Shown here piece by piece: positions 41,667 to 58,104 of a DNA stretch of 64,000 nucleotides. Both the position numbers and the translations under genes were made by a program. The stretch covers positions 6,448-70,447 of the forward strand of contig JBBQRQ010000007.1 of assembly GCA_038214755.1 (NCBI GenBank). The letters are read 5' to 3'. Source of the stretch: Verrucomicrobiota bacterium. Lineage in GTDB: Bacteria; Verrucomicrobiota; Verrucomicrobiia; Limisphaerales; CANJXF01. A model generated the notes under the pieces. It did not search any database and was not told the origin of the DNA. It saw only the letters and a list, made by a program, of their open reading frames with translations. Numbering within the stretch: position 1 is the first letter of the stretch; every line of letters starts with the position of its first letter.

Positions 41667-44600
41667 TTAAGGTAAAGTGAACGCATAAATTAATCTATAG
41701 AATTTTTTACCCGCTCCCACGGTTACGGTATAGGGACTGGTCACAGGAGTTGCGTTGCTATTCAGTGGTACATCCGTCCATCCCGATGGATTTGAAACGT
41801 CGTCACTCTGTTGCAATCTGAACCCGGCTCCCGACCACGACAATGTCAATTGACCCCCAGCCAAAACAGTGGTGATTTTTGGTTGAGGGGCTGAAATCGG
41901 CCCCCACGCTTGCACGTCGTCCACGTAATCGAGACCCGTATTATTGCCGTTTTTGAACGAGAGACCTTTGATGACCGTTCGGACGGGACAGGCGTAGTTG
42001 GTCGAAACGCCGTTGGCCGCCACGAGGACATTGGTGGAACCCACAACATAATCGGCCTCCAGCTTAACCCAAGTGTTTGCGGGTACGGTCACACCTTTGG
42101 CTATATGAGCGGTGCCGTTAAAGACCGTGACAGTAAGTTGCGTAATGCCGATGGAAATAATTTGAGCGAAGGTATCCGCCGACGGACTCGTCGTGTCCAG
42201 ACCCATTTGTGAAAACCCCCCGACGAAGTGATAGATCCAGGCCTCGTAATGCAGGGTACCATTAGTCACACTCGCCGTGAATGCCGGATGCGCTATACGT
42301 TGGGAAGCAGTGGCGCTATTCGGTCGTTCGCTAATCAGGTACTTCAAGCCTCCGTGCGCCCCTGGGTCAGGGTTATCGGTCGTGATGGTAAGGAATGGCA
42401 ACGGAGGATAAATGTTATAGGAGCCAATTTGGGGTGCATCAGGAGCGGTGTTCGGGATGGAATTTTCAAAGGTGTCGGCGAAAAGCAGCGGCGAAACCAC
42501 CGCACTAATATCGTCCACATAGCTTACACCCCCATCAGCACCATTTCTGAACCAGAGACCTTTCACCACAGTTTGCGCGGGAACGGAAAAAGCGGCTGGC
42601 GTGTTGTTGACCGTCAGGACGATGTTGGTGGAGCCGACCACATAATCGAGCGCAAGTTTCGTCCAAACTCCCAGAGCGTTGGTCAGTCCTTTGTCCACGA
42701 ACGTCGTGCCGTCCCAAACCCGAACTTTCCCATCCTGACCAAACGCAGCATCCGTGTGGAAGGAATCCCCAGCGGTGTCCAAACCCATTTCCGCAATCCC
42801 GCTCCCGATGGGCAAGTTGATCCATGCCTCCACGTGTACTGAACCATTGCTTAGAGGGGCAAAGAAGGCCGGGCGGGCAATACGTACCGTAGCCGCCGTC
42901 ACTCGTTGGATGACCAAATAGTTCGAACCGCCATGCGCGCCAGGGGCGAGGTTATTTGTCACCACGGCGGGGTTCGTCTCGACGTTATATGAGCCTGCCT
43001 GAGGCGCATTCGGGGCGGATCCAACAGCGGCGTTCTCAAGGTTGTCGCTGAATAAAACAGCGCTGTAGGAAGGAATATTATTTGCACGAAAATTCTCACC
43101 TGGCCCCGCGCCCGTCGGCTGGGGATAAGAGGCATTGGTGGTTATTAGAATTTTATCGATGATAAAGCCGTCTTCGCGCATCCATATATGAAACTGATGA
43201 TCGCCGGGTGAGGTCACGTCGAATGCCACCGGTGTGCCATCCAAGTTGGTGTTCAGCCAGACCCAACCGGCGCCTGCCGGGAAACGGCCGATACGACGCG
43301 TCGTGGAAAGCAATACCTTGTCCAGTCCGGCATGCACCACGCCGTTGTCGGTGGTGCCAACAGTTCCATTATCGCGTCCTCTCACCCAAATGTAATGAGT
43401 GCCAGTGGTGAAGAACCTGACTTTGTAATCCAAGCGGGGACTGTCGCTGACATCGTCTCCAACGTTGACCCCGGTATTGGGCACAGCTTGCATCGCTCCC
43501 TCTCCAGAATACCCTGGATCAGAGTTAGTGCCTGTCCAACGTTGGGCTAGAACATTAGGCAATACGTTGCGGTCAAAACGTTCCGCTTCAATTACCAGGA
43601 GTCCGTCCGCGCTCTCTTGCAGCGGCGGCCGGGTGTTCAAGGTGCTGATGATGGTGTAAGTGATAGTATTGCTGTTCACGTTGCCCGGAAGCGCGTCATC
43701 ACTGTAAACTAACTGAACCGTGTTGGTGGCTTCTTCCGGTTGAATTGGAGGCTGGTAACTTATGATGGTGAGATTAGTGCCACTCGGCCTGGTGATGGAG
43801 GGCAAAACCGGAACGCCGTTAAAGTATAGCACCAGTGAATTAGTGTTAACCTTTTGCGTCCCGTCCTTTACCGTAAAGACGACATTGGTGGTTCGTGATA
43901 CACCGGTCGCTCCGTCCGCTGGTTGCGTTGATACTAGTAAGGTCTTGACGCCCGGAAGCAAGTATGCCTGCACGTCGTCCACGTAGTTCGTAGCAGGCTG
44001 GCTGCCGTTCTTGAAAAAAAGGCCAATGATGCTGGTGGTTATTCGGGGAGTGGCATAATTCGTAGTTGTGCTGGGATCGTCGTTGAGCGTCAGGGTCAAG
44101 TTGGTCGTCCCCATCACATAATCGAACGCCCATTTATGCCAGGTGTTCAGCGCCAGGGTCTGACCTTTGTCCACGAAAGTCGCATTCTCAGGAGAGACAC
44201 GGACGGACGTGCCGTTAATGCCCATAACGTTCGCTATGAGATTACCCGCAGTGATCGGAGTTATGACAAATCCAATTTCCGCAAAGGGCGGGGTCGAACC
44301 TGATTTGTTGTAAAACCAATTTTCGACATGCAACCTATTACCAGCTTCGGTCACGGCGCGTGTGAACTGCGGGCGCACTATATATGAACTTGAAGTGGCG
44401 CTATCCAATCGCCTCGTGATCAGGTAATTCGCGCCCCCGTGAGCGCCGGGGCTAAGGTCATTCACCACGCGGGTTAGGTTTGTCGTCTCCATGTACGACC
44501 CGAACTGGGGCGCGGACGGGACAGCACCGACCGTGTTGCTTTCAAAGTTGTCGGCGAAAAGAACTTCGGGGACAAACGGAATTGCGTCGTAATAAACAGT

Positions 44601-45284
44601 CGAGCCAGCGCCACTGGTCTCCAGCCTGATGCCAGTGGCGTTGCCGCCCGTGCCACCATAGGAAGATTGGGAATTCCTCGTTTCGAAGGTCGTGCCATTG
44701 ACCGAAACTGACCACGAACCGCTGCCGTTGGTGTGTTGCAAAACTACAGTATTCCATGCGAGGAGGTTGTACGTCTGAGTCAGAACCTGGGGGCCAGGAA
44801 TACTGCCGTCGTAGATGCTGATTGACCCATTAGCCAAGAAATCAATTTCACCACTGTCCGCCGCACCAGACATGGGAAAAGCGGCGGCACCATTGGTATC
44901 TACATAGATGGAAAAGCTGATCCGGACTAAATCGCCTGTACCACTATTAGTCGCAGCGCCAAACTCACCAACTGCCGTGATTGTTGGACTGCCTGGTGTA
45001 CGGGCGAGGCGCAAGAACTTACTGCCTTCAGTGGCGCTGATGGCAGCACCAAGACGATTGGTCGCGGCAGCCACAACTGCCAAGCTGTTGCTCAAACCAT
45101 TATTAGACCAGTTACCCACTAATGGATCGTTCGCACCAGGAACCGAACCGACAGTGCCGTTCTCAAAATTAGCGTTGAAGATGGACTGACTCTTAGTGAC
45201 GTTGAAAATCACGAAAGCATTGGCTGGGGGCGTCAGACAGAGAGCCCCGAGGGCAGATAGGACAAACAATTTTGTTGGTTTCAT
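41667..45284 (-). CDS. Large secreted/surface protein with internal repeats
   Basis: Signal peptide, three ~190-aa repeats 'LF.D.(F/L)E...P.APQ.GSY...PGAHGG..YL...YVDD', an Ig-like and a CBM-like middle, and C-terminal 'LTLSWSG..F.LQQS...KKFYRL'. Confidence 0.85.
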   Translation of the reverse strand: MKPTKLFVLSALGALCLTPPANAFVIFNVTKSQSIFNANFENGTVGSVPGANDPLVGNWSNNGLSNSLAVVAAATNRLGAAISATEGSKFLRLARTPGSPTITAVGEFGAATNSGTGDLVRISFSIYVDTNGAAAFPMSGAADSGEIDFLANGSISIYDGSIPGPQVLTQTYNLLAWNTVVLQHTNGSGSWSVSVNGTTFETRNSQSSYGGTGGNATGIRLETSGAGSTVYYDAIPFVPEVLFADNFESNTVGAVPSAPQFGSYMETTNLTRVVNDLSPGAHGGANYLITRRLDSATSSSYIVRPQFTRAVTEAGNRLHVENWFYNKSGSTPPFAEIGFVITPITAGNLIANVMGINGTSVRVSPENATFVDKGQTLALNTWHKWAFDYVMGTTNLTLTLNDDPSTTTNYATPRITTSIIGLFFKNGSQPATNYVDDVQAYLLPGVKTLLVSTQPADGATGVSRTTNVVFTVKDGTQKVNTNSLVLYFNGVPVLPSITRPSGTNLTIISYQPPIQPEEATNTVQLVYSDDALPGNVNSNTITYTIISTLNTRPPLQESADGLLVIEAERFDRNVLPNVLAQRWTGTNSDPGYSGEGAMQAVPNTGVNVGDDVSDSPRLDYKVRFFTTGTHYIWVRGRDNGTVGTTDNGVVHAGLDKVLLSTTRRIGRFPAGAGWVWLNTNLDGTPVAFDVTSPGDHQFHIWMREDGFIIDKILITTNASYPQPTGAGPGENFRANNIPSYSAVLFSDNLENAAVGSAPNAPQAGSYNVETNPAVVTNNLAPGAHGGSNYLVIQRVTAATVRIARPAFFAPLSNGSVHVEAWINLPIGSGIAEMGLDTAGDSFHTDAAFGQDGKVRVWDGTTFVDKGLTNALGVWTKLALDYVVGSTNIVLTVNNTPAAFSVPAQTVVKGLWFRNGADGGVSYVDDISAVVSPLLFADTFENSIPNTAPDAPQIGSYNIYPPLPFLTITTDNPDPGAHGGLKYLISERPNSATASQRIAHPAFTASVTNGTLHYEAWIYHFVGGFSQMGLDTTSPSADTFAQIISIGITQLTVTVFNGTAHIAKGVTVPANTWVKLEADYVVGSTNVLVAANGVSTNYACPVRTVIKGLSFKNGNNTGLDYVDDVQAWGPISAPQPKITTVLAGGQLTLSWSGAGFRLQQSDDVSNPSGWTDVPLNSNATPVTSPYTVTVGAGKKFYRLIYAFTLP

Positions 45285-45761
45285 AGAGTTAGTAGCTGTG
45301 AGTATCTTGATGGTATTCCGATTTTCGCAGAGGGAGGTCTGTTGCTGTTTTTAATTTTTTTTCCGGACTTGAGACAAGTTTTAGAGATGGCTCCGCACTT
45401 GATTGATGCACGGAGAACCAACGCCGAAGATCAACTCCTTATTAGAATTTTCGTACATCTGCATAAAAGTTTCGGGTAAACAACCACGAACCTTGCCACT
45501 AGGCCACCCATATCACCAAGATACTGCAGTCTGTTAAACATGGCAGAACTTCCCAAGTTTCGCGCGCAAATGCCTTTTCCTATCCCCGACGTGCCGTGGC
45601 GTATCCCACGCTGAAGGGAATGAAGCGTTTCTCAAGGAGCAGGTTGATTTTGCAGTCGGTCGCGGCACCAAGATGTACGCGGTCAAAAAGCGGGGTAATA
45701 CCCCAGCGCAGCACCCGCGTGTCCGTCGAGAATGCGATGAACGGCCGTGTCATAATTGTGA

Positions 45762-45771
45762 TGGTATACAA
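45762..45771. promoter_or_regulatory. Putative GntR(FadR-type) operator
   Basis: TGGTATACAA, one mismatch from the palindrome TGGTATACCA. Related sites at 45930-45939 (TGGAATACCA) and 45311-45320 (TGGTATTCCG). Confidence 0.45.
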
Positions 45772-45987
45772 TGCGAGAAATTCTTGGCAAGCTTTTTTTT
45801 GATTTATTTTTTTCAAGAATAAACATGCCAACTACTATGAAATCCGATGCTCGAACGTGGTTCGGGTGGGCGACGGACAAGGGTCTAATCGACTCCAGAC
45901 TGGAAAATGCTTTGACAACTGACACGGAATGGAATACCAAGGTGGCAATAGGTTGTTTGAGAGTCACCACCGTCAGGAAAAATCGCT

Positions 45988-46629
45988 ATGTTATCCGAAA
46001 AAGTCTACAAGAAAGTTAAGTCGATGATCTACGATGGACACTTGCAGCCAGGTGAGCGTCTGGTGGAGCGAGATCTTTCCCGGAAGCTAGGCACAAGCCG
46101 CATTCCCTTGCGTGAGTCTCTGGTTCGTCTTGAATCCGAAGGGTTAGTACGCAGCATCCCGAACAGCGCCTCTTACGTTGAGGATTTTTCCCCGTCAGAC
46201 ATTTTGGAAATGTATTCGATGCGACTCGTGCTGGAGCCCTTGGCGGCGCGACTGGCCACGCTGCAGCATGAGGATTCCTTGTTGGACAAACTGCGCAGGC
46301 TTTGCGAACTGATGACCACCTGCACAAGAAACTGTGATTGGACTGGACTTGATCGCGCCGACTACCAGTTTCATCGCTTGATCGTCGGCGCATCAAGCCA
46401 TAAACTTTTGATTCGTACCTATGACAACTGCCATATCCAAGTCACCGGCAGCCGCCCTTCATACGCTCACTTGAAGCTCCTTACCCCTGATACTACCGCT
46501 AAAGAACACGATGTCATCATGCAGGCTATTGGAAAATGGGATGCCCACGCTGCGGAGGAAGCTACCCGCGATCACGTAAGACTTGCTCTCGGTCAACTGG
46601 AGGAATACTTAGGAGTACGGCTGAAATAA
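45988..46629 (+). CDS. GntR-family transcriptional regulator (FCD domain)
   Basis: 'LQPGERLVERDLSRKLGTSRIPLRESLVRLESEG', 'DYQFH' and 'EH..I..AI...D'. Confidence 0.93.
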   Translation: MLSEKVYKKVKSMIYDGHLQPGERLVERDLSRKLGTSRIPLRESLVRLESEGLVRSIPNSASYVEDFSPSDILEMYSMRLVLEPLAARLATLQHEDSLLDKLRRLCELMTTCTRNCDWTGLDRADYQFHRLIVGASSHKLLIRTYDNCHIQVTGSRPSYAHLKLLTPDTTAKEHDVIMQAIGKWDAHAAEEATRDHVRLALGQLEEYLGVRLK

Positions 46630-47125
46630 AGGATCGGGGCATTAATGCCAATGCTACGGCACCAAACATATCCATCCGGGCATCCTCGCTCTTCCACGGA
46701 ACACGTTTTGGTGGCAACCGGAATCCGAGTTCATCCGAAAATTTGTCGGCAATGATTTGAGCGATCTGATGTTTGGTGCCGTGTCCATCAGGAACAAAGG
46801 TACGACTCACCTGCTCGCGCGGAAACAACAGGACAGTGACATTGCGTTTTTCCGCCCGGAAGATGATTCGCTTGGTGAGCATCCGAATCCTCGTTGAACG
46901 CCGGAACGGTTTAATGGAAGTATCTTCAAGAACCAGTACGTCAGGCTCATAATGCTCGATCATCTCTCTTACCCTCGCAATTGATCCATTATTCTTGTCT
47001 CCATCAATTGCCTTCAGACCCCAATCGGCCAAGATGTTCTGTCCTTCAAGGAGCGCAAAACCGAGACCTCGAGTTGAGAGAGCTATTCCAAGGATACGAG
47101 GATATTTCGGGAGAGTCTTTGTCAT
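46562..47125 (-). CDS. RuvC-like (RNase H fold) protein, probably catalytically degenerate
   Basis: 'RILGIALSTRGLGFALLE', 'PDVLVLED', 'TK.QIA' and 'MFGAVALAL'. Confidence 0.65.
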   Translation of the reverse strand: MTKTLPKYPRILGIALSTRGLGFALLEGQNILADWGLKAIDGDKNNGSIARVREMIEHYEPDVLVLEDTSIKPFRRSTRIRMLTKRIIFRAEKRNVTVLLFPREQVSRTFVPDGHGTKHQIAQIIADKFSDELGFRLPPKRVPWKSEDARMDMFGAVALALMPRSFISAVLLSIPPVDREQVLRDRG

Positions 47126-47136
47126 GATGTTCTGGG

Positions 47137-47469
47137 TTAAGAAGCCGCAAGGTCAGCGAATGCTTCGCGTTTACGAACGCTCTGGGAACTAGGTTTGCCG
47201 AAATCTTTTCTTTCCGATAAAATCTTGGCCCGCTCGGTTACTTCTCCTTCGACTTTTTGATAGAGACCAGCAAAGAGTTCACTGGTTGATCTTTTGTAAA
47301 CGACCTCGAACGCCAAGGCGGTTCTCAAACTTGGCTCACGAGCAAACCGTTCGTAACGGGAAATCTTGGCTCCGCTTCTAGTGCCCAACAGAAAAGCCAC
47401 TTCATCTTGGGATAAAGCAAGGCGCTTTCGGTTTGCTTTGAGGTAATTGGGTAGTTGTGGCGAAGACAT
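47137..47469 (-). CDS. XRE-family helix-turn-helix protein
   Basis: 'LKANRKRLALSQDEVAFLLG....ISRYERFAREPSL'. Confidence 0.88.
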   Translation of the reverse strand: MSSPQLPNYLKANRKRLALSQDEVAFLLGTRSGAKISRYERFAREPSLRTALAFEVVYKRSTSELFAGLYQKVEGEVTERAKILSERKDFGKPSSQSVRKREAFADLAAS

Positions 47470-47541
47470 GGAATTGATCAACTCTGAATGAGTTACAAGT
47501 TACAGTATCCGATCACTCGGATTACCTCACGGGGGCAACCT

Positions 47542-47559
47542 TTGCCGGAATCGGCAAGA
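47542..47559. repeat. Palindromic box TTGCCG-N4-CGGCAA-GA, copy 1
   Basis: TTGCCGGAATCGGCAAGA; 16/18 identical to 49959-49976. Confidence 0.7.
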
Positions 47560-47713
47560 TTTTACAAAAACACCGAGCGTTTTTGCTCGGCGCTATCGGA
47601 AATATAAAAGCACATTTCTGGAGATTTGTACAGTATTCTTTGTGATTCAACTTGCCTAAACCTACAAGCTTCACCGTCTGCCTCGCCGTATAGAGATGGG
47701 TCAGACTTAAGTG

Positions 47714-47884
47714 ATGAAAATTGAGCAGACCCAGATCGATGAGTTGAATCGCATTTGTATGGAGTCCTTTCAAAGAAATTTCTCCGAAACCGAATTACAG
47801 GAGATTGCCCAAAGGATCATTCGCTTTCTCAAGAATACCGAAGGCTTCCCCGCTCCACTTTCGCACGACGTTGACCCGGATTAA
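47714..47884 (+). CDS. Small 56-aa helical protein upstream of the recombinase (below the ORF-track cutoff)
   Basis: MKIEQTQIDELNRICMESFQRNFSETELQEIAQRIIRFLKNTEGFPAPLSHDVDPD*; co-oriented and 31 bp before the LSR. Confidence 0.55.
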   Translation: MKIEQTQIDELNRICMESFQRNFSETELQEIAQRIIRFLKNTEGFPAPLSHDVDPD

Positions 47885-47915
47885 CGTCGTACGTTAAGCT
47901 AGAACAATCCCTTCC

Positions 47916-49754
47916 ATGACCCCCTATGTAATTTACAGTCGAAAATCGCTGGAGGATGAAGACAGTCAAGTGCAATCAATTCCGTCCCAAGAGAAGGAAA
48001 TGAAATCGATTGCGGCTAAATTCAATTTGACCCTCGTCGAACCTCTGCTGAGTGAAGCCAAATCCGCCAAAGCACCTGGCCGGCTTGTTTTCAACGAGAT
48101 GATGGAGCGGGTTGATAAAGGTAAAATCAAAGGAATACTTTGCTGGAAACTTGATCGGCTTGCCCGCAATCCCGTTGACGGCGGACGGATCATTTGGGCA
48201 ATCAAGCAACATGGTTTAGTCATCAAGACCCCTCACCAAACTTTCTCCCAGGCGGAGGATAACTTGATTCTCATGTATATCGAGTTTGGGATGGCTCAAA
48301 AATATGTTGATGATCTCAGTAGAAATACCACAAGAGGTTTGAAGGCCAAAGCTGAAAAGGGCTGGTACCCCGGTGTAGCTCCAATGGGATATTTAAACTC
48401 CAAGATAGAAGAACGTGGCAGTAAAACCATCCTGAGTGACCCGGAACGATTTGCGGCTGTCCGGCGAATGTGGGATCACATGCTCACGGGCAATTTCAGC
48501 CCCGCACGCATCCAGAAGATGGCAAATGCGGAATGGGGATTTCGCACTCGCCAAACCAAACGAACGGGAGGTAAAGCCATTTCAAGAAGCACGGTCTACA
48601 AAATCTTTTCTGATCCCTTCTATTATGGTCGGTTTGAATATCCAAAAAGAAGCGGGCTATGGTATGAAGGCCAGCATGAACGGATGATTACGGAGGCAGA
48701 GTTCAACTGCGTCCAAAAGATACTTCACCGCGAGACTAATCCGCGGCCTCATACGGAATTTGTTTTCCATTTCCGAGGATTGATTAGATGTGGAGAATGT
48801 AATTCAAGTATTACAGCCCATTGTAAGGAGCAAGTGCGTTGCACCGGGTGTCATTACAAATCGTCGGTCAAGAACCGCGCTTCCTGTTTTAAGTGTGGTC
48901 TATCACTCAATGACATGAAAGCTCCGAAGCTCAGGCAATACGCGTATTACCATTGCACGCGCAAGCTCAATAGAGCTTGTCGCCAACAATGTATTTCTGC
49001 CGATGCCCTCGACAAGCAACTAACGGAAAAGTTGAAGGCTTACCGTCTGCCACCCGAGTTCCGGGATTGGGGCTTGAAATATATTGAAAAACTAAAGGAT
49101 CAAGATCGTGCGGAGAGAAAGCAAATCTTTGAAGAACGCAGAAAGACGTACGACCAATGTCTATCTCGCTTGGAGAATCTGGTTAAGCTCAAGACAGCCC
49201 CCGAGAATGCTGACGGCAGTCTTCTTTCCGATGAGGAGTATCAAAAACAGCGCTCCGATTTACTCAATCAGAAAGGCAGTCTAGCAATGGATACTTCCAC
49301 CTTTGAGATCGAATTGGAGAGCAAGACGCGCGTGGCAAAGGAAGCCTTAAACACGATGGGCCAAATAGCCGAACCGACCTTCGATGGGGATGTTTTGAGA
49401 AAAAGAGAGATTCTGGCTGCTCTGGGATTGAACCACGTCTTAAAGGAAAAGGAGCTAGAGATTAGGCCGGAATTTCCCTTCTCTGACTTTCCATATGATG
49501 GAAAGCAGGATCGATCTAGTATTGACCCGATTGAACCGGAAAATATGCAGGAGGGACCAGGCTTAAATGGGGATACTATCTCTCCTTGTCCGAGACTGGA
49601 GCGGGACGTGGACGAAGATCGAACCAACGCATTGAAATCGTGCCTTCAATCAATCTGGAAAAAGATTGATCCATCATCGCCGATTTTCAATCGCTTTCCT
49701 TTTAAACTAGGGGCACCAATTGTCCCCGTTCGTCGCGGGAGACGGCTAATTTAG
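47916..49754 (+). CDS. Large serine recombinase (resolvase + recombinase + zinc ribbon + coiled coil)
   Basis: 'YSRKS' with catalytic Ser11, 'WKLDRLARN', 'APMGY', 'GQHERMITEAEFNCVQ' and 'GLIRCGEC...YYHC'. Confidence 0.93.
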   Translation: MTPYVIYSRKSLEDEDSQVQSIPSQEKEMKSIAAKFNLTLVEPLLSEAKSAKAPGRLVFNEMMERVDKGKIKGILCWKLDRLARNPVDGGRIIWAIKQHGLVIKTPHQTFSQAEDNLILMYIEFGMAQKYVDDLSRNTTRGLKAKAEKGWYPGVAPMGYLNSKIEERGSKTILSDPERFAAVRRMWDHMLTGNFSPARIQKMANAEWGFRTRQTKRTGGKAISRSTVYKIFSDPFYYGRFEYPKRSGLWYEGQHERMITEAEFNCVQKILHRETNPRPHTEFVFHFRGLIRCGECNSSITAHCKEQVRCTGCHYKSSVKNRASCFKCGLSLNDMKAPKLRQYAYYHCTRKLNRACRQQCISADALDKQLTEKLKAYRLPPEFRDWGLKYIEKLKDQDRAERKQIFEERRKTYDQCLSRLENLVKLKTAPENADGSLLSDEEYQKQRSDLLNQKGSLAMDTSTFEIELESKTRVAKEALNTMGQIAEPTFDGDVLRKREILAALGLNHVLKEKELEIRPEFPFSDFPYDGKQDRSSIDPIEPENMQEGPGLNGDTISPCPRLERDVDEDRTNALKSCLQSIWKKIDPSSPIFNRFPFKLGAPIVPVRRGRRLI

Positions 49755-49958
49755 TCATGAGACTCTTTACTACCCGATGACCTGAACGGGAGGAGGAGAG
49801 ACCTAGACTACCTGTAATATCTCGTATTGATGGAGAAATTCCTTCCCTTTCTGCCGTCTTTATAAAGTAGTTTCTTCTCAGTTATTGCTTTGAATTCCTG
49901 AACTGCCTCCGTGATGATCATTATAGTACGGTATCAAAACTGGAGTAGGAGTACAAGA

Positions 49959-49976
49959 TTGCCGGAGGCGGCAAGA
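49959..49976. repeat. Palindromic box TTGCCG-N4-CGGCAA-GA, copy 2
   Basis: TTGCCGGAGGCGGCAAGA, just upstream of the hicB -35 element. Confidence 0.7.
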
Positions 49977-49989
49977 AATCTACACTGCT

Positions 49990-50018
49990 TTGCATTTTGG
50001 GTTAAAGTTTTATAGAAT
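49990..50018 (+). promoter_or_regulatory. Sigma70-type promoter of hicBA
   Basis: TTGCAT-N17-TAGAAT; the ATG lies 6 nt after the -10 box. Confidence 0.6.
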
Positions 50019-50024
50019 GAAACT

Positions 50025-50273
50025 ATGAACCAATACACCTACTCAGTCGAAATAGAAGCAGCGGAAGAAGGAGGATATGTCGCCTCTGTCCCCGCATTGC
50101 CGGGCTGTCATACGCAAGGCGAATCATTGGATGAAACAGTTGCCAATATCAAAGAAGCAATTGAAGGATTCTTACTGTCACTCGTAAAACATGGCGAGCC
50201 GATTCCTGTTGAGCGTGAGTCGAGACATCCTCTGACTATAAGCATAGGGGTACGATCTCCGCTTGCTGCATGA
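50025..50273 (+). CDS. hicB: HicB-family antitoxin (short form)
   Basis: 'EEGGYVASVPALPGCHTQGESLDETVANIKEAI'. Confidence 0.93.
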   Translation: MNQYTYSVEIEAAEEGGYVASVPALPGCHTQGESLDETVANIKEAIEGFLLSLVKHGEPIPVERESRHPLTISIGVRSPLAA

Positions 50274-50497
50274 CGCGGTTACCTATTCTCAATTCTAAGA
50301 AAATAATTAAGGCTTTAAAACAAGCTGGTTTTGAAGAGGACATTCAACATGGCAGTCATTTGTATTTTTGGCATCCGATAAAGAAACTAAGGACGTGTGT
50401 GCCAATTCATGCCGGCAAAGATATTGGTCGTAGCTTACTGAGAAAGATTTTAACCCAGGCTCGACTTTCAGAGGATGAATTCCGAAAATTACTCTAG
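50270..50497 (+). CDS. hicA: HicA-family mRNA interferase toxin
   Basis: 'IIKALKQAGF...GSH...VPIH..KDI...LLRKIL'; ATGA overlap with hicB. Confidence 0.92.
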   Translation: MTRLPILNSKKIIKALKQAGFEEDIQHGSHLYFWHPIKKLRTCVPIHAGKDIGRSLLRKILTQARLSEDEFRKLL

Positions 50498-50704
50498 ACA
50501 CGAAAGGTGGTATTTTATTGCCCCGAAGTCCAAACCCAGCAAAGTGTTCCGTTCTCCTCACTCGATTAGCTGTCGAACAACATCTCTTCCTTGACCGTTT
50601 CAAAGAGAGACTGGAGTTTAAGAGCAGCTGGAGTGTTTACCTTGTTTACCATACAAAAGTGGGTATCTCTCCTTTTTGAGGTAAACAGTCGGCCTTAGAC
50701 CAAA

Positions 50705-50732
50705 GAAAAACCCCTAAGCTGAGGGGTTTTTC
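50705..50732. terminator. Intrinsic (bidirectional-type) terminator
   Basis: Perfect 11-bp inverted repeat GAAAAACCCCT-aagctg-AGGGGTTTTTC. Confidence 0.75.
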
Positions 50733-50761
50733 ATGGGGGCTATTCTTGCCAATTTGGCAAC

Positions 50762-50929
50762 TTGGAGCGGGACATGGACGAAGATCGAACCGTATCATTG
50801 AAGCTTGCTTTAGAAGGAATTTGGAAAAAGATCGTTCCTTCATTGCCGATTCTTGATCGCTACCCTTTCGTGAATGAAAAGCCAGTAATTCATGCTCTCC
50901 ATCGTGATGAGAAGGGTCGTTTTGTTTAA
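50762..50929 (+). pseudogene. Orphan 3' tail of a related large serine recombinase
   Basis: LERDMDEDRTVSLKLALEGIWKKIVPSLPILDRYPF is 24/36 identical to the LSR tail; 50763-50791 matches 49597-49625 at 28/29 nt. Confidence 0.8.
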
Positions 50930-50952
50930 GAAACAGATCCAATCAAATAATC

Positions 50953-51830
50953 CTAGAAGCCATTTCATAAGTTAAAAATTGTAAGTGCTTTGTACTTGTA
51001 CTTTTACGAAGGATTTGTGAAAAGCTGGGGATGCAAAAAGCATTCTTATCAGATGAGCAATGGAAAAAAATTGAGCCGCATTTGCCGTGCGACAAAAGTC
51101 GCGGACGGCCTTGGGCGGACAACCGCCGTGTCTTCGAAGGGCTATGGTGGATGCTTAAGACCGGCGCACGCTGGTGCGATCTACCCAAAGAATATCCCAG
51201 CCCCAGCACCTGCTGGAGACGCTTGCGCCGCTGGGAAAAGCAAGGCGTCTGGCTCAAAATCTGGCGGCAGTTTTTATCGGAACTGGACCAGCGCGGCAAA
51301 CTCGATTGGAGTGAAAGTTTTCTGGATGGCAGTTTTGCTCCGGCAAAAAAAGGGGCTTTGGCGTCGGCAAAACCAAGCGCGGCAAAGGCACGAAGTGGAT
51401 GGTGGTGGTCGACGGCCAAGGTGTTCCTCTGGGAGTCCAACTGGTCAGCGCCAGCCCGGCGGAAGTGACGCTGGCGGAGAGCACGCTGCAAAAAATTTCG
51501 GTGCCGCAGCGGCGCGGACGCCCGCGCCAGCGGCCTTTGCGCGTGGTGGCCGACCGCGCTTACGACAGCGATGCCTTGCGCTGGCGTTTGCTGCAACGCG
51601 GCATGGTTTTGATCTGTCCGCATCGCAAGAACCGCCGGAAACCCTCGCGCAACGACGGACGAGAACTGCGCCGCTACCGCAAGCGTTGGAAAGTCGAACG
51701 CACCTTCGCCTGGCTGGGCAACTTCCGACGGTTGCTGGTTCGTCACGATCATCATCTGAATATTTATGAAGCGTTTTTCCACCTCGCCTGCCTCATCATC
51801 ACCCTCAGGCACTTATGAAATGGCTTCTAG
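50953..51830 (+). mobile_element. Intact IS5-family (IS427-like) insertion sequence
   Basis: Perfect 20-bp terminal symmetry CTAGAAGCCATTTCATAAGT / ACTTATGAAATGGCTTCTAG, including the CTAG target; two overlapping transposase ORFs. Confidence 0.92.
51031..51818 (+). CDS. IS5 transposase, OrfA/OrfB joined by a -1 frameshift
   Basis: OrfA 'LSDEQW..IEP...GRP..DNR...TGARWCDLP', A7G4 slip site at 51345-51355, OrfB 'ADRAYD' and 'YRKRWKVERTFAWL'. Confidence 0.9.
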
Positions 51831-51904
51831 TCATTCTCAGATGCTATTACTACTCGGTTGACTCTAACTATATCACTCTCCCGCCGAATCTAAAAGAGAC
51901 GGCT

Positions 51905-52153
51905 TTAGGAACTACCCCACTTGATCCAATCGCTCTGATGAATATTCGACTGTTGGATCATTGTCTTGAGTGTTGAGATGGGATAACTCCCATGAGTAAT
52001 ATTCACTTCGACCCGTCTATCTTTCTCCGCACCTTCTCCGTATTTTATCCAGGCCTCATGCGAGCCTTTTAATGGTTTTAAAAATCTGAATCCGTTCTTC
52101 TTCAAAAAGTGCGTAACATCTCGATATGTCCAGTTGCGTAATTTTCTTGTCAT
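51905..52153 (-). CDS. hicA: HicA-like toxin (no adjacent hicB recognised)
   Basis: 'VTHFLKKNGF....KGSHEAW...Y...TLKTMIQQS'. Confidence 0.75.
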   Translation of the reverse strand: MTRKLRNWTYRDVTHFLKKNGFRFLKPLKGSHEAWIKYGEGAEKDRRVEVNITHGSYPISTLKTMIQQSNIHQSDWIKWGSS

Positions 52154-52570
52154 GCCCCCAGAATAATTCTGAGGACCGTTGAAATACAGACGATGGGATT
52201 TGACGACAGCGGCAAGTCTTTTTTAGACGTCAAATGATCTTCCCTCCGAGGCCGTAGGGAAACCATATTCATTCTACTCGCAGCCGAAAGAGCGAAATGT
52301 TAGTCTGACGCACTACTGAAAGAGCATATTCCTTACTGTTGACCTTTTTCCAATTTCTGAGGACGCCACTGCCCTACACCAGAATTTACCTTGTTGCCCT
52401 GCCGTCAATTTTAGCTCGCTAACCGATCCTGCCAACGATTACACAGGGAAGAGACTGGATGATAAAGGTAAAAGATAAAAGAACCGTATTCTTCCAGGCA
52501 CCAGACAGGCGTTTTATCTCTTTCGAGCGCCTGGATGTCAATTCACTTTCGCTGATTATATGCGAGTTGA

Positions 52571-52816
52571 TTACCCTTTCGACTCGCGAGGGTCTGCACT
52601 TCTAGGATAGGTACGCTCTTCTTGGAATCGAGCATTTTCCTTTTGGATTTTTACTGAACCGCCTTCCTGGCCAAGAACTTTCTTAAGCACCCCGCCTTTG
52701 GTCGCGTCCTCTTTGGTCTCGAAGGTTTTAACGACCCGGTTGGTTTTATCATTTCCAAGGTCCCAACGGTCCTTTTTCTCGTTATATTCCAATGTGAATT
52801 TTCGTAAATTTGCCAT
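52571..52816 (-). CDS. DUF2188-family protein
   Basis: 'W....TFETKEDA...GGSVKIQKENARFQEERTYPRSADPRESKG'. Confidence 0.8.
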   Translation of the reverse strand: MANLRKFTLEYNEKKDRWDLGNDKTNRVVKTFETKEDATKGGVLKKVLGQEGGSVKIQKENARFQEERTYPRSADPRESKG

Positions 52817-52964
52817 ATTTTTTTAAGTTAGTTCTTCGGTGGTCGACCGAGCACCGATATTGTTACAATGATATCAGTTATGGCAGGAATGTAAAGCTTG
52901 GTAGAATAGCGTTCTTGCCTTCCGTTCGATAACCCAGCATCTTGGCATGGTTGAGAACTGTCCT

Positions 52965-53444
52965 TTACAAGAGTTGTTCCATCAAGCCGGAAATCGCCCT
53001 AATCAATGGGTGAATCTCTCCCAAGAGGCATTTGAATTCGCCTCTACCGCGCGAGCTCGGTTTGCTAAAGGTGATCCAAAGACCAAAAAACGATTCTTTC
53101 CACTATCGCATCGAACTTAACCTAATCGACAAAAGCTTAGCATTGAAGCCAAGAAACCATTCTTTATCCTAGAAAATTCCGTGCGAGGTGAGGGATGTGA
53201 AAATCAAGAAATCGAACCTGAAATAATCCATGTGGAACGAGGACAGAAAGAGGCAAGGGCCTCTTCTGGTCCCGGATGGTGCGCCATCCGGGACGAAGAT
53301 CGAACATTTCCATTAAAAAGCGGAGAGATAGTTAAGTCAATTTACCACTTCTTTCGAAGCGAATGTTCGTCGCCTAAATTTAAGTTGTCCGAATGGGCCG
53401 ATTTAGGTCATGAAGAAAGCATGACAGAACAAGAAAAAATCTAA
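52965..53444 (+). pseudogene. Frameshifted C-terminal remnant of a third large serine recombinase
   Basis: NQWVNLSQEAFEFASTARARFAKGDPKTKK / ILSTIASNL / LSIEAKKPF...IEPE-x23-DEDRT; the IEPE-to-DEDRT spacing equals that in the intact LSR. Confidence 0.75.
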
Positions 53445-53491
53445 AGTGGGTCGAACTTGCCGGAAGTGATAAGAATCATCACCTGCTCTGT

Positions 53492-53715
53492 TTACAGCAA
53501 TTTTTGAAAGTCTTCCTCAGATACTTCTATTTGTTTCAAAATGAGTTTGAGCAATGAACGTTTTGGATCCTTACCATGCTTTGGCACGCACGTTGTAACC
53601 CCTTTATAGGATGTTTCAAAATAAGGTGACTACCGCGTTGCCTATCCACCACAAAGCCGACTCGTTCGAGAGCTTGAATAATTTTACGTGCCGATAGAGT
53701 CGGCTGGCTGCCAAT
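53492..53715 (-). pseudogene. hicA: Frameshifted hicA
   Basis: PTLSARKIIQALERVGFVVDRQRGSHLILKHPIKG / TTCVPKHGKDPKRSLLKLILKQIEVSEEDFQKLL*; no clear ATG. Confidence 0.8.
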
Positions 53716-53805
53716 TTCAAATATAAAAAATGACCGGTTGCGGACGGGATTTAGATAAAAGCTTGTTGCCAAGCGATCTTTTGGTTAAAAACTGCGGTCG
53801 ACCCA

Positions 53806-56800
53806 ATGGCAGTGATTTGCCCAATCCTTTTCTGCATTTTTGGTGCGGCGCTCGGGGTGGCTCACGCGGAAGCCGCGTTGCGCCCGCCAGTGCATCCGCG
53901 CCGCAACGTGGAGGATTTTCCGGTGGTGCCGGCCAAGTACGTTCGCTTCACAATTCTCAAGGCCACCAGTAGCGAGCCTTGCTTGGATGAACTAGAGATT
54001 TATCCCGAGGAGGACGCAACGCGCAACATTGCGCTGGCCAAGGGCGGCGCGCGGGCGACGGCTTCAGGCTCTTTGCCGGGTTTCCAGATTCACCAACTCG
54101 AATTCGTCAATGACGGAAGATATGGAAACGGCCATAGCTGGATCGCCGATAAAGCCAGTGCCTGGGTCCAAATCGAACTTCCGGAGGTGGCGCTTATCAA
54201 CCGCGTGGTTTGGGGTCGTGACCGCGAGAACAATTTCGTCGACCGCTTGGCGGTGGAGTATGGCATTGAGGTATCTACCAACGGCAGCACTTGGTGCCCC
54301 GTCGCTTCCTCCGCTGACCGGTCGCCGTTGGTCATAGGCGGAACGTTCGCCGGAGTCCAACCCATGACACGGCAAATCGTGACTCGGTTCGCGCCTGTCA
54401 ATAGCAGCTTCTCATTCGAATCGCAGAACAACTCCCCCGATTACAGAATCGACCGCTGGCAGACCGAGGACGGCCTGCCGGGGAATACGGTGACTTCGAT
54501 ACTTCAGACGCGCGACGGGTATCTCTGGATTGGTACGTTTGGCGGGTTGGCGCGGTTTGACGGGGTGCGGTTCAAACGATTTGGCGAGGCGGAGGGACTG
54601 AAGAACAATCGCGTTCTCTGCCTGTGCGAAGATCGGCAGGGCAACCTCTGGGTGGGCAGCGAGGGCGGCGGGCTTTTTCAACTTCGTGACGGTGTGTTTA
54701 CTGAACTGACGACCCGCGACGGTCTGCGGCACGATGTCGTCACGGCGTTGGCGGAGGGCCGGAGCGGCCGCCTTTGGATTGGAACCTACGCTGGCCTACA
54801 GTGCTGGCAGGAAGGACACTTTGTTATGGACCCAGCGGAACCGTTTCAGTCTTCCTTCCCGGTGACGCGGTTGCTCGTGGACCGCGCTGGCACGGTCTGG
54901 ATGGTCGTTAACGGTCAGTTGCGCACGGTGGTGGCCGGGCACGTGGTCACTCCCAAACTGGGGGGTGAACCGAGCGGTCAACTGGCGATCTCCGCGCTGC
55001 ACGAAGGCAAATCAGGGCAGCTCTGGCTCGGCGGCAACAGTGGATATGTGGCGTCGTCTAGCAACGGCGTCCTGAGGGTCTTACCACTGCCGCAGGAAAT
55101 GCCGCCTGACAATATTTGGGAAGTGCTGGAGGCAGGGACTGGCGACATATGGATGGGCACCGCCTCGAGTGGCTTGCGGCGCTGGCGCAACGACCGCGTT
55201 TTGGCGCTCACCACCCAAGAGGGGATGGCTGAGAATTCCGTACGTTGCCTCTTTGAAGATCGGGAAGGAAACCTTTGGGTGGGCACCAATGGCGGGGGAC
55301 TACAGCGGCTCAAGCCGAAAACTCTTCGACTCGTGACCACTCGTGATGGGCTGGCCCACAACGTCGTGATGTCACTCGCCGAAGAGGGTAGTGGGGAGTT
55401 GTGGATTGGTTCTAATTGTGGGGGGCTGAGCGCGCGACGCAAAGGAGTATTCACTCCCGCATACTTGAACTACCTGCTCGACAATGAATGCATTTGGTCG
55501 GTGCTAAGCGCTCGGGACGGTGCGCTGTGGGTGGGCACTTGGAACAACGGACTGTTTCGCAAAACTGGGGAAAAGCTGGAGCAGTTTAAATTGGCCAACT
55601 CCTACAGCGATGAACCAGTGCTGGCGTTATGCGAAGACCGCAACGAAGGAATGTGGGTGGGAACCTACCAGGACGGGCTGAAATTTTTTCGGGACGGCAA
55701 GTTTACCTCGTATCGCATAACAAATGGATTGTCGGCAAATTTCGTTACGGCGTTGGTGCAGGACGTGAAGAGTAGGCTTTGGATTGGGACGGCCGGGGGC
55801 GGACTAAATTGTTTCGCGGACGGCGTGTTCAAAGTCCTGAAGCGCCGAGACGGATTGGGCAGCGATTTCATTCGCGCTCTCCACATTGACGCGAATGGAG
55901 TGCTCTGGATTGGCACAGGCGGAGGCGGAGTGAGCCGGCTAAAGGACGGGGAGTTAAAGACGATCAGCACCCGCCAAGGGCTGCTTGATGATGTTATCTC
56001 GCAAATTCTTGAGGACGACAATGGTCATTTTTGGTTCGGTTCGAATCGTGGCATTTTCTACGTGTCCAAGGCGGAATTAGAGCGGGTAGCCGAGGGACGT
56101 GTAGGCTCACTTAATCCCATCACCTTTGGAAAAGCGGAGGGAATGGAGAATCTCGAATGCACCGGCGGCTTCTGCCCGGCGGGCCTGAAGACACGAGACG
56201 GCAGGTTATGGTTTTCGACAGTCAAGGGACTGGTGACCATTGACCCGAAAAACATTCGCAGCAACGATTTGCCTCCGCCGGTTGTCATCGAGCAGGTCAT
56301 TGTTGACGGGGTTCCCGCAGAAGTTGATGTAAAGAGGCTCACTTCTCAGATCCGAAACTCGAAATTGGAGATTCGAAATCGTCGGGGCATGTATGCATCG
56401 AATAATACGACTTTGAGAATTCACCCCCGGGCAAAACGCGTCGAGTTGCATTATACCGCGCTGAGTTTCACTTCACCGGAGAAGGTGCGGTTTCGCTACC
56501 GACTTGACGGTCTTGATTCGGACTGGGTAGAAGCCGACGGACGACGTATCGCGCAGTATCCATTTCTGCCGCCGGGACCGTACCGGTTCCGCGTTACCGC
56601 CTGCAACGAGGACGGCGTCTGGAGCCAGAGCGAGGCAGTGCTGGCGCTAACCTGCCTGCCGGCTCTCTGGCAGACTTGGTGGGTTCGGCTGCTGGGGGCC
56701 GCGCTAGTGTTGGGCGGAGCTGGTTGGACTGTGAAAGTGGGGGCAACGCACCGGCTGCAGCGTAGGCTCACGCTGCTCCAGCAGCAGCACGCGCTTGAGC

Positions 56801-57432
56801 AGGAACGGACGCGGATTGCCCGGGACATTCACGACGAGCTGGGTGCTTCGCTCACGGAAATTTCTCTGTTGAGCGATCATTGCCGGAAACGCCTCGACCG
56901 GCCTGGAGAAGTGGCGGTCGATTTACAGAGGATTTCCACCACCGCGCGAGAAGCCGTGCAAACTGCGGATGGCATCGTTTGGGCGGTCAATCCCCGAAAT
57001 GATTCGCTTGATCACCTAGCCAACTACCTCGTCCACTTTGCCGAGGACTTCTTCCGGCTGACAAACATTCGGTGTCGTTTGGATGTGCCAGCCGACTGGC
57101 CGCAAATTCCCCTACCTATGCAACATCGGCACCATTTGCTATTGGCGGTTAAGGAGGCTTGCAATAATGTCGCACGCCATTCTGAGGCGTCTGAAGTGTG
57201 GCTGCGCATGACGCTGACAGACCAGGAATTCAGCATCGAGGTTCGAGATAACGGTCAGGGGTTCCGACCTGAATCAAAACCGGAAGATAGTGACGGTTTA
57301 ATCAATATGCGTGAGCGCATGGCAGATCTGGGTGGGCGATTGGAACTATCCAGCGAAGCAGGTCGGGGAACGTCGGTGAAGTTGATTGCGCCACTGAACC
57401 AACTCAACTCATTCACATGTCCATCCGTGTAA
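53806..57432 (+). CDS. Sensor histidine kinase: discoidin-like + Reg_prop beta-propellers + Y_Y_Y + HisKA_3 + HATPase
   Basis: Repeated 'GL..N.V..L.ED..G.LW(I/V)GT', 'FRYRLDGLD..W', a TM helix, 'ERTRIARDIHDELG' and 'DNGQGF...GL.NMRER'. Confidence 0.93.
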   Translation: MAVICPILFCIFGAALGVAHAEAALRPPVHPRRNVEDFPVVPAKYVRFTILKATSSEPCLDELEIYPEEDATRNIALAKGGARATASGSLPGFQIHQLEFVNDGRYGNGHSWIADKASAWVQIELPEVALINRVVWGRDRENNFVDRLAVEYGIEVSTNGSTWCPVASSADRSPLVIGGTFAGVQPMTRQIVTRFAPVNSSFSFESQNNSPDYRIDRWQTEDGLPGNTVTSILQTRDGYLWIGTFGGLARFDGVRFKRFGEAEGLKNNRVLCLCEDRQGNLWVGSEGGGLFQLRDGVFTELTTRDGLRHDVVTALAEGRSGRLWIGTYAGLQCWQEGHFVMDPAEPFQSSFPVTRLLVDRAGTVWMVVNGQLRTVVAGHVVTPKLGGEPSGQLAISALHEGKSGQLWLGGNSGYVASSSNGVLRVLPLPQEMPPDNIWEVLEAGTGDIWMGTASSGLRRWRNDRVLALTTQEGMAENSVRCLFEDREGNLWVGTNGGGLQRLKPKTLRLVTTRDGLAHNVVMSLAEEGSGELWIGSNCGGLSARRKGVFTPAYLNYLLDNECIWSVLSARDGALWVGTWNNGLFRKTGEKLEQFKLANSYSDEPVLALCEDRNEGMWVGTYQDGLKFFRDGKFTSYRITNGLSANFVTALVQDVKSRLWIGTAGGGLNCFADGVFKVLKRRDGLGSDFIRALHIDANGVLWIGTGGGGVSRLKDGELKTISTRQGLLDDVISQILEDDNGHFWFGSNRGIFYVSKAELERVAEGRVGSLNPITFGKAEGMENLECTGGFCPAGLKTRDGRLWFSTVKGLVTIDPKNIRSNDLPPPVVIEQVIVDGVPAEVDVKRLTSQIRNSKLEIRNRRGMYASNNTTLRIHPRAKRVELHYTALSFTSPEKVRFRYRLDGLDSDWVEADGRRIAQYPFLPPGPYRFRVTACNEDGVWSQSEAVLALTCLPALWQTWWVRLLGAALVLGGAGWTVKVGATHRLQRRLTLLQQQHALEQERTRIARDIHDELGASLTEISLLSDHCRKRLDRPGEVAVDLQRISTTAREAVQTADGIVWAVNPRNDSLDHLANYLVHFAEDFFRLTNIRCRLDVPADWPQIPLPMQHRHHLLLAVKEACNNVARHSEASEVWLRMTLTDQEFSIEVRDNGQGFRPESKPEDSDGLINMRERMADLGGRLELSSEAGRGTSVKLIAPLNQLNSFTCPSV

Positions 57433-58037
57433 CTATCGTCGAAGATGAAGCTCGCGTGCGGGCCCAGTTGGCGAGAATAATCACCGAAGCCCAGGGGTTC
57501 AGTTGTCAGGGCATCTTCGGTTCAGCCGAGCAGGGTTTGCAAGAGATTCCGCGTCAACCGCCTGACGTGGTGTTGATGGACATCAACCTGCCGAAAATGT
57601 CTGGTGTCGAATGCACTTTTCGACTCAAGAAATTGGTGCCGCAAGTGCAAATTGTCATGCTCACGGTCTATGACGACAGCGAGCAGATTTTCAAAGCGCT
57701 GGAAATGGGCGCGAGCGGCTATCTGCTCAAGCGAACGCCGCCGGATGAAATTCTGAAGGCGGTAATGGAGGTGCATCGTGGCGGTGCGCCGATGTCAAGT
57801 TACATCGCACGCCAAGTGGTTCAATCGTTTGGGAAGCGAACCGCCCCCGACACGCCGAATCTTTCCCCGCGTGAAGCGGAAGTTCTGGCGCTGGTTGCCA
57901 AAGGATACATCAATAAAGAAATCGCTGACCAGCTGGGCGTGGGTCTGGAAACCGTCCGATCCTATTTGAAGAGCACCTACGACAAGCTCCATGTCCGTTC
58001 ACGGACCGAAGCGGCCATGAAATTCTTTCAACGGTAA
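57417..58037 (+). CDS. NarL/LuxR-family response regulator
   Basis: 'IVEDE', 'LMDINLP', 'GYLLK' and 'LSPREAEVL...KEIA'. Confidence 0.95.
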   Translation: MSIRVTIVEDEARVRAQLARIITEAQGFSCQGIFGSAEQGLQEIPRQPPDVVLMDINLPKMSGVECTFRLKKLVPQVQIVMLTVYDDSEQIFKALEMGASGYLLKRTPPDEILKAVMEVHRGGAPMSSYIARQVVQSFGKRTAPDTPNLSPREAEVLALVAKGYINKEIADQLGVGLETVRSYLKSTYDKLHVRSRTEAAMKFFQR

Positions 58038-58090
58038 CTCACACCACGAGGGGTTTAAGTTCAAAAGGCGGATGACGATTCTAAAACAAG

Positions 58091-58104
58091 CCCCCGTACG
58101 GGGG
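58091..58104. promoter_or_regulatory. Perfect palindrome, candidate response-regulator binding site
   Basis: CCCCCGTACGGGGG, 35 bp upstream of ATG 58140. Confidence 0.45.

Follow-up and report, generated by a model that had tools for sequence, protein, structure and literature searches.

Attachment-like sites resembling tRNA 3' ends within and behind a large serine recombinase gene of a Verrucomicrobiota bacterium

Why does one sequence of 15 nucleotides occur three times within and behind a gene for a site-specific recombinase, and why does it read, on the opposite strand, like the end of a tRNA? The question is raised by a stretch of 64,000 nucleotides (hereafter the window) from a Verrucomicrobiota bacterium (Limisphaerales; CANJXF01; assembly GCA_038214755.1, contig JBBQRQ010000007.1, positions 6,448 to 70,447 of the forward strand). 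In it an intact gene for a large serine recombinase (LSR) of 612 residues, P0001, lies on the plus strand at 47916-49754, as judged from Pfam matches, homologues and an AlphaFold2 (AF2) model. We think it quite probable that the 15-mer is the right-half motif of the attP-type attachment site of an LSR family that keeps this site inside its own recombinase gene and uses the 3' end of a tRNA gene as attB. Copy 1 would then be the unrecombined site of the intact LSR, copy 2 the distal end of an LSR-less hicBA module of 1.17 kb lodged in the site, with an older displaced tail behind it, and copy 3 the site of an older, decayed paralogue.

The 15-mer GGACGAAGATCGAAC is found exactly at 49610-49624, 50776-50790 and 53291-53305, always on the plus strand (copies 1, 2 and 3), and a search allowing up to two mismatches found no further copy in the window. 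The count expected in the window is 0.17, and none of 100 dinucleotide shuffles reached three copies. In the whole assembly (5.1 Mb, 175 contigs) it is confined to the same three places, apart from a match with one mismatch on contig C45 that was set aside, since its context is not that of an LSR and chance alone would give about 0.4 such matches in 5.1 Mb. The arms GTCC and GGAC flank 18 nucleotides in both copy 1 (49588-49591 and 49610-49613) and copy 3 (53269-53272 and 53291-53294), and the latter has a perfect 11-bp inverted repeat whose halves, 53269-53279 and 53284-53294, are separated by 4 nt. In copy 2 the GTCC arm is missing, and a terminator-like hairpin lies on the minus strand, running from 50732 to 50705, 30 nt past the CCA. 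The site stretches of copies 1 and 2 are identical at 28 of 29 positions, and their similarity begins at TGG, the complement of CCA. Read on the minus strand, the last nine bases of both are identical to the 3' ends of the genome's tRNA-Gly(ccc) and tRNA-Gly(tcc); the end of copy 3 resembles the genome's tRNA-Arg, tRNA-Val and tRNA-Leu, and its inner part too is of this Arg/Val/Leu kind and not Gly-like. The T-loop-like block stands farther from the CCA than in a real tRNA, by 4 nt in copies 1 and 2 and by 5 nt in copy 3. A preliminary description of this DNA had reported the three exact positions, the symmetric arms of copies 1 and 3, the perfect repeat of copy 3, the tRNA-like minus strand with its T-loop 4-5 nt too far out, and a copy 2 without left arm whose similarity stops at the CCA and is followed by a terminator; each of these is present in the sequence, and the tRNA likeness agrees with the comparison to host tRNAs. 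ARAGORN found no tRNA or tRNA fragment in the 64-kb window, and an Rfam scan of 46000-54500 at E<=10 gave no tRNA, its only matches being two sub-threshold snoRNA-like ones within an insertion sequence (IS).

Copy 1 falls in codons 565-569 of P0001. The protein matches the Pfam families Resolvase (PF00239; 1.3e-18, residues 5-149) and Recombinase (PF07508; 3.3e-09), and reaches 21.7 bits with Zn_ribbon_recom (PF13408), under the cut-off of 25.3; of 8000 sequences scored, 3520 are homologues at E<=0.001. Across 112 homologues Y7, R9, S11 and the D80-R81..R84 block are invariant, and we assign S11 as the putative catalytic residue. The AF2 model, built on the 112-sequence alignment, has a mean predicted local distance difference test score (pLDDT) of 82.9 and shows residues 1-525 folded, with β-strands at 290-347 that carry invariant cysteines and two long helices at 380-427 and 439-483. 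P0001 thus displays a resolvase-type catalytic N-terminal domain with conserved Ser and Arg, then a recombinase domain and a zinc ribbon with an inserted coiled coil, and by both sequence and model it is a member of the large serine recombinases. Beyond the folded part the model predicts disorder at residues 526-564 (pLDDT about 50) and then a helix at 565-583 (pLDDT around 90); R569 is present in at least 90% of the 112 homologues, and the motif is nearly invariant as protein. The predicted crossover centre falls in codon 562, inside the disordered stretch, and integration would therefore remove the conserved helix.

The homologues show what may happen at this position. The 120 best protein homologues (P-numbers) mostly carry '..IEPEN..', some 25 residues, D(D/E)(V/D)RT and then a tail, while a few (P0026, P0029, P0030) switch there to antisense-tRNA-like peptides and P0014 and P0056 have other, unrelated tails from that position on. 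DNA was examined for 159 homologous loci (L-numbers), 79 from species genomes and 80 from metagenomes, and sorted by a loose peptide pattern into long and fused classes. At 23 of the 159 the recombinase stop and an opposite-strand tRNA gene overlap (Asn 12, Gln 7, Ser 2, Ile 1, His 1); 104 have the 'D.(D/V)RT + tail' form; and in the other 32 the frame leaves the contig, is truncated or has a different tail, in some cases a tRNA-looking but uncalled one. Infernal confirmed the fused tRNA at nine of nine loci tested, with 58.8-75.3 bits against a gathering score of 29. The closest look at the exchange comes from L127, a 562-residue frame fused to tRNA-His, and P0104, a protein of 609 residues with a long tail: as proteins the two are identical at 560 of 561 residues and part after ..CPGWG. 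Judged from these sequences, the same LSR occurs in both states, tailed and tRNA-fused. A recombination site within the integrase open reading frame (ORF), with a C-terminus altered by integration, is what both this pair and the 23 fused loci display. The check that had been suggested, namely whether homologues end either in D.(D/V)RT tails or in antisense tRNA with the breakpoint at the predicted position, therefore came out in favour of the proposal, and the claimed swap of the C-terminus is seen in L127 and P0104, which part at the breakpoint. Contigs assigned to Verrucomicrobiota, Patescibacteria and many other phyla contain members of the clade, although the assignments are labels of metagenome-assembled genomes and some may be mis-binned. 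Among 2.9 million viral contigs six loci were returned, and only L188 is a close relative; since it is the only true relative there, LSRs of this family are, as far as these contigs indicate, mostly not phage integrases.

Complete integrated elements are preserved in some relatives. In L023 the attR is formed by the LSR fused to tRNA-Gln at 11680, and the attL lies at 4753, 6.9 kb upstream, with a short tRNA-3'-end-like stretch, the block with 5 extra nt and a tail of the common '..AERAAALIYAHF..' type; its left flank also holds a palindrome. Upstream junctions resembling this attL occur in L081, L041, L078, L065 and L044, and elements bounded by a whole tRNA on one side and a tRNA-3'-end junction on the other were found in L023, L081, L041 and L044. 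The closest relative with DNA, L106, is 75% identical and carries the same 15-mer. Here an LSR remnant is fused to tRNA-Thr, and 20 nt farther on stands a junction of tRNA 3' end, right half and tail, from which it follows that two adjacent tRNA genes have both been used. In L085, L091 and L106 two LSR elements stand in tandem at a single tRNA; the idea that long forms in general are tandem arrays ending in a tRNA was tried and dropped, as it is true of these three and elsewhere no downstream tRNA was seen.

The geometry of the sites accords with that of serine integrases. The attP-type site around copy 1 extends over 49576-49625 on the plus strand, with its dyad centre at 49600/49601 and about 25 bp per side; to the right of the GGAC arm come a 5-nt spacer (49614-49618) and the T-loop-like block (49619-49625). 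The skeleton GTCC-N18-GGAC-N5-TCGAACC is shared by 37 long-form sites, and the tRNA-fused sites have the same skeleton minus 5 nt, whether one compares L023 with L024 or the attR with the attL of L023. The dyad centre lies 9 nt left of GGAC, which in copy 1 is the discriminator/first acceptor base, and the 15-mer spans +10 to +24 of the right half-site, that is, the linker and the zinc-domain motif. According to the available text of Rutherford et al. (2013; PMC3783163), the zinc-domain motif occupies bp 16-24 in attP and bp 11-19 in attB, a shift of 5 bp. The 5-nt difference within the family agrees with this shift, which the preliminary description had invoked, and its view of copies 1 and 3 as attP-like is upheld by their GTCC-N18-GGAC arms and their 4-5-nt offset. 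Inner motifs in common and an outer motif shifted by about 5 bp are likewise what LSR sites should show, and both comparisons involving L023 show them. If attB is a tRNA 3' end, attP would for that reason look like a tRNA with 4-5 extra bases, and a crossover near the CCA would keep the tRNA body whole, which fits the intact fused tRNAs.

In light of these observations, we propose that the last ~50 codons of the recombinase gene contain the attP-type site and that the 3' part of an opposite-strand tRNA gene serves as attB. The enzyme would read the same two motifs in both, an acceptor/T-stem part and a T-loop part, the latter standing 5 bp farther out in its own site, as in the attP versus the attB of serine integrases. 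Crossover near the discriminator/CCA (49600/49601 in copy 1) would leave the tRNA whole, and integration would replace the residues after ~562 by antisense-tRNA-encoded ones while the original tail moves to the other end of the element. P0001 may be active at its own copy 1, and its target would be a tRNA-Gly/Thr-type gene, given the match of 22 of 28 positions to tRNA-Gly(tcc) and the use of tRNA-Thr and tRNA-Gly by the closest relatives. The suggested tRNA 3'-end target is therefore borne out for the relatives, 23 of 159 of which are fused to tRNAs, and is an extrapolation for P0001 itself, with no tRNA in the window. The exchange of tails, put forward in the preliminary description as a built-in switch, may also change the activity of the enzyme.

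Copy 2 requires a further step. Between copies 1 and 2 lies an LSR-less module of 1,166 bp (49601-50766, plus strand), which comprises the right half-site, the coding part of tail 1 (to 49754), hicB (50025-50273; HicB_lk_antitox, 1.8e-11) and hicA (50270-50497; HicA_toxin, 4.6e-18) as a plus-strand toxin-antitoxin cargo, a terminator and a palindrome. The last two constitute the module end at 50674-50761, the intrinsic-terminator hairpin spanning 50705-50732 and the palindrome, of the form 7-1-7, spanning 50746-50760. Copy 2 follows as a tRNA-like right half-site at 50763-50791 with a displaced tail ORF (50763-50929 in all, plus strand) and no LSR on its left; the tail frame has 55 codons and is 58% identical to P0001 residues 561-603 (tblastn). 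The stretch 50674-50761 recurs in other metagenomes, where L109 has two homologous stretches and L118 one and both stems show compensatory changes, and other loci have different palindromes at an equal distance from their extra copies. Within the genome the palindrome was found nowhere else and stands behind none of the 52 tRNA/tmRNA genes, on which grounds we read 50674-50761 as the probable end of a mobile module and not as the trailer of a host tRNA gene. As to the earlier notion of copy 2 as a hybrid scar, its hybrid junction stands, while its left side is a terminator-palindrome module in place of the supposed host tRNA trailer.

The strongest competing account takes copy 2 for a plain attL scar, its left flank being the trailer of a host tRNA gene since lost. 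It draws on the start of the copy 1/2 similarity exactly at the complement of CCA, on the minus-strand terminator 30 nt on, and on the genuine attL junctions of such build in L023, L081 and L106, that of L023 even having a palindrome on its left. We nevertheless regard it as unlikely: the homologues of 50674-50761 in L109 and L118 indicate that this flank travels with mobile DNA, no such trailer stands behind any of the 52 tRNA/tmRNA genes of the genome, in which the palindrome is unique, and the DNA to the left of 50674 is another mobile module, made of tail 1 and hicBA, and not host DNA.

Our reading of copy 2 as a module junction gains from the recurrence of such arrays. A survey covered 67 long-form loci, the window included, of which 35 have at least 3 kb of downstream DNA. 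Extra copies of site plus tail occur downstream at 14 of these 35 testable loci, and at all 67 such copies are absent upstream and on the opposite strand. To the left of most extra copies stand a terminator hairpin and a palindrome and not an LSR remnant, and displaced tails are 80-92% identical in DNA to tails carried by LSRs at other loci. L020 equals L066 plus one module of ~730 bp between two sites, the DNA being otherwise ~90% identical, and the exchange point falls within 6 nt that include the predicted centre, right at the left-hand limit of the ~100 nt over which the two sites are similar. Other cargo in modules of relatives includes a Shedu SduA_C protein (L153:6966-8219) and a ThiF (E1-like) and Prok-E2 pair with a helix-turn-helix (HTH) gene (L109:16198-19757), which are probably anti-phage defence genes. 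The modules may thus move by LSR recombination, a suggestion that derives from the single presence/absence pair L020/L066. From the layout, the polarity and this pair one could go further and tentatively regard the family as an integron-like capture platform that also inserts at tRNAs, with modules stacked one way and each bringing a new tail, cargo, terminator and palindrome; we see this as a possibility to be entertained, with the odds somewhat against it.

The arrays might instead have come about by homologous recombination or deletion in tandem full LSR elements at tRNAs, without movement of modules. Arrays of two elements at one tRNA do exist (L085, L091, L106), and LSR remnants lie to the left of copy 3 in the window and of the first extra copy of L164. 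We hold this to be very unlikely, as most extra copies have a terminator-palindrome and no LSR remnant on their left, the L020/L066 exchange point falls at the extreme left edge of the ~100-nt similarity and in the predicted core, and no tRNA closes the arrays in the DNA examined, including 26 kb of a complete chromosome.

That the motif is an attachment site is further indicated by a constraint acting on DNA. The Arg codon of the motif is CGA or AGA at 34 of the 37 sites, against 355 of 1339 Arg codons (27%) elsewhere in the same genes (Fisher p = 2e-16, a significance that is overstated, the sequences being relatives). GTCC is kept in 21 of the 37 and is encoded by Arg-Pro, Ser-Pro or Cys-Pro codon pairs, and copies 1 and 2 are identical at 28 of 29 site positions while their tails are 58% identical as protein. 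Codon choice at the site is thus constrained, on this sequence evidence, beyond the needs of the protein, and protein constraint alone, which the preliminary description had named as a way in which it could be wrong, fails as an explanation. The idea that the copies are leftover ends of paralogous genes, with the 15-mer kept for a D-E-D-R-T protein motif and an accidental likeness to tRNA, is the least credible of all: the near-invariant R569, the confidently predicted helix that the motif starts and the position of all three copies within LSR-tail reading frames speak for it, but it conflicts with the fixed synonymous positions, with the retention of GTCC although the residue before Pro varies (Arg, Ser, Cys), with the divergence of the tails of copies 1 and 2 beside their near-identical sites, and with breakpoints to tRNAs, other tails and modules that all fall at one place.

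The attachment-site reading builds on the sites, the two states of the family, the attL/attR pairs of relatives, the DNA-level constraint and the recurrent downstream arrays, all of which are seen in the genomes themselves, and several points weigh against it. The best host tRNA matches the site of P0001 only modestly, tRNA-Gly(tcc) agreeing at 22 of 28 positions after a 4-nt gap where the median is 16. No tRNA gene was found in the window and no tRNA-fused LSR in the assembly, so that an element bounded by a whole tRNA gene is not seen here. Most long-form LSRs lie on chromosomal contigs, keep their attP-type site intact and have no tRNA up to 10 kb away, and no tRNA follows a long-form LSR in 26 kb of the complete chromosome G041. 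The long and fused classes depend on the loose peptide pattern mentioned above, P0104 enters the comparison with L127 as a protein only, and the relatedness of the sequences inflates the codon contrast. Finally, recombination of an attP-type site with one that has an attP-type right half corresponds to no canonical serine-integrase pairing described in the available text of PMC3783163.

Copy 3 and its surroundings appear to be the vestige of a second LSR. A decayed 3' remnant of a paralogous LSR gene, with frameshifts and no N-terminal part, occupies 52947-53290 on the plus strand; blastn aligns 52963-53290 at 68-76% identity with the 3' parts of about 60 LSR genes (best E 8e-41), and the protein of the remnant matches P0001 residues 539-591 weakly (E 0.32). 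At its end the attP-type site of the decayed LSR, centred near 53281/53282, and a tail ORF to 53444 make up 53257-53444 on the plus strand, the tail being of the '..SIYHFF..' type common in the family. Because LSR sequence stands on its left and it has a perfect dyad of its own, we read copy 3 as the likely unrecombined site of an older, decayed paralogue belonging to another subfamily.

Between copies 2 and 3 an IS of the IS4/IS5 family (50953-51830, plus strand; DUF4096, 3.4e-26; DDE_Tnp_1, 1.3e-15) consists of two overlapping frames between 20-bp inverted ends. It has a GC content of 0.60 against about 0.45 around it, and is a later insertion just behind tail 2. Its overlapping frames suggest a programmed frameshift, and a same-genus contig (G007:C361) matches a 171-nt piece of it at 94% identity. 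Contigs of the only public run that contains the region, which may be the source of the assembly, showed no alternative joints at copies 1-3, a result without bearing on activity; the single joint in that run was a 215-nt skip inside the IS on one low-depth contig, and there were loose ends from related sequences. Small cargo on the minus strand (51905-52816) comprises a HicA-like gene (51905-52153; HicA_toxin, 4e-05, below the cut-off) and a DUF2188 gene (52571-52816; 1.6e-07), and 51905-52192 resembles DNA directly behind the LSR genes of L121 and L152.

The region from ~46.6 to 53.8 kb has a GC content of 0.43-0.48 against 0.53-0.61 outside, and the P0001 LSR was found in none of eight same-genus genomes; we count these signs of a mobile island in favour of the attachment-site reading. 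A DNA search with 40000-59999 for an empty site in the same eight genomes gave only paralogous kinase pieces and repeats (64-94% identity), no synteny and no definable empty site. On the left, homology with L109 begins at about 46647, the 3' end of a 187-residue ORF, and no att-like sequence was found at this edge. Upstream of the LSR, on the minus strand at 46562-47773, are that ORF (no Pfam match), an XRE-type HTH gene (47137-47481) and an ORF of 83 residues. L109 keeps the 187-residue ORF, the HTH gene and the stretch from 47767 beside its LSR, and XRE-type genes also lie upstream of the LSR in L029 and L050. These small upstream genes are candidates for regulators or for a directionality factor.

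Some neighbouring features are of separate interest. The island adjoins a Reg_prop/Y_Y_Y histidine kinase gene (53806-57432), of which the next 10 kb downstream (C7:67853-73870) contain at least three paralogous pieces at 73-81% identity; together they form a local kinase family. At 41400-41560, a stretch of ~100-170 nt near the 5' end of an N_methyl/DUF1559 gene (40823-41620, minus strand) is similar, at 70-90% identity, to dozens of sites across this genome and all eight same-genus genomes, and probably encodes the conserved signal or prepilin-type N-terminus of a large gene family. ARAGORN calls of 'tRNA-Cys/Ala' on contigs C5, C37, C79, C93 and C99 have no CCA and share a common GGTTnAAAACC-type loop; instead of real tRNAs, these may be false calls or members of a repeat family. 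Downstream of a tRNA-Leu(tag) at 43250-43333 of G000:C4, an 8-nt unit (caccaaac-type) is repeated in tandem over a long stretch.

Tyrosine integrases are the enzymes classically known to target tRNA genes, and it is with these, as well as with known serine integrases, that the family invites comparison. The integrases of LI/A118, phiC31 and Bxb1 have the same domain set, short dyad sites, a central crossover and the 5-bp shift (available text of PMC3783163); unlike them, the P0001 family has its attP-type site in the recombinase coding sequence and a tRNA gene as target. An att site within the integrase ORF is found in the tyrosine recombinases of Mx8 (IntP) and SSV: integration gives a new C-terminus in Mx8 and splits the gene in SSV, according to the available portions of PMC6070905, PMC4383910 and PMC7253208, and the swap between L127 and P0104 is of this kind. 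The P0001 family differs in its serine rather than tyrosine chemistry, to which it is unrelated, and in a crossover near the CCA that exchanges only the last ~50 residues; neither the tyrosine recombinases of Mx8 and SSV nor IntI with its attI and attC correspond to the Pfam matches of P0001, which are those of a serine recombinase. With the tRNA islands of the Islander type, which also belong to tyrosine integrases, the relatives share a whole tRNA at one end with the integrase gene adjoining it. The ends of L081 and L023 have few identical bases in common at the crossover, in contrast to the long tRNA duplication of tyrosine islands, and those of L044 share 17 nt; the element-borne half resembles a tRNA only because the enzyme must bind both. 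Integrons have a like layout, with a recombinase gene, a docking site and a one-way stack of small modules ending in imperfect palindromes, and the cargo of the P0001 family, hicBA in the window and Shedu SduA and ThiF/E2 in L153 and L109, is integron-like too. The differences are the serine enzyme, the docking site inside the gene, and a replacement tail and terminator in each module.

Serine integrases are stated not to be known to use tRNA genes in the available text of a 2014 database paper (PMC4383910) and of a 2022 review (PMC9262239). The word 'tRNA' does not occur in the main text of a large LSR survey preprint (10.1101/2021.11.05.467528), and a literature search that left most subscription journals and supplements outside found no serine integrase with a tRNA target or an in-gene attP.

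If the proposal is true, a widespread clade of tRNA-targeting LSRs would change how islands are searched for, as tools of the Islander type look for tyrosine integrases at tRNAs, and the rule that serine integrases avoid tRNA genes would need revision. A target that is known, structured and nearly universal would furnish natural attP/attB pairs in which the 5-bp shift can be read from genomes, which would be useful for integrase engineering. A C-terminus rewritten by the enzyme's own reaction would offer a testable model of self-regulation in serine recombinases. Should the enzyme also build the module arrays, cassette capture would have been invented independently a second time, and, if the integron-like reading is true, each capture would rewrite the C-terminus of the recombinase.

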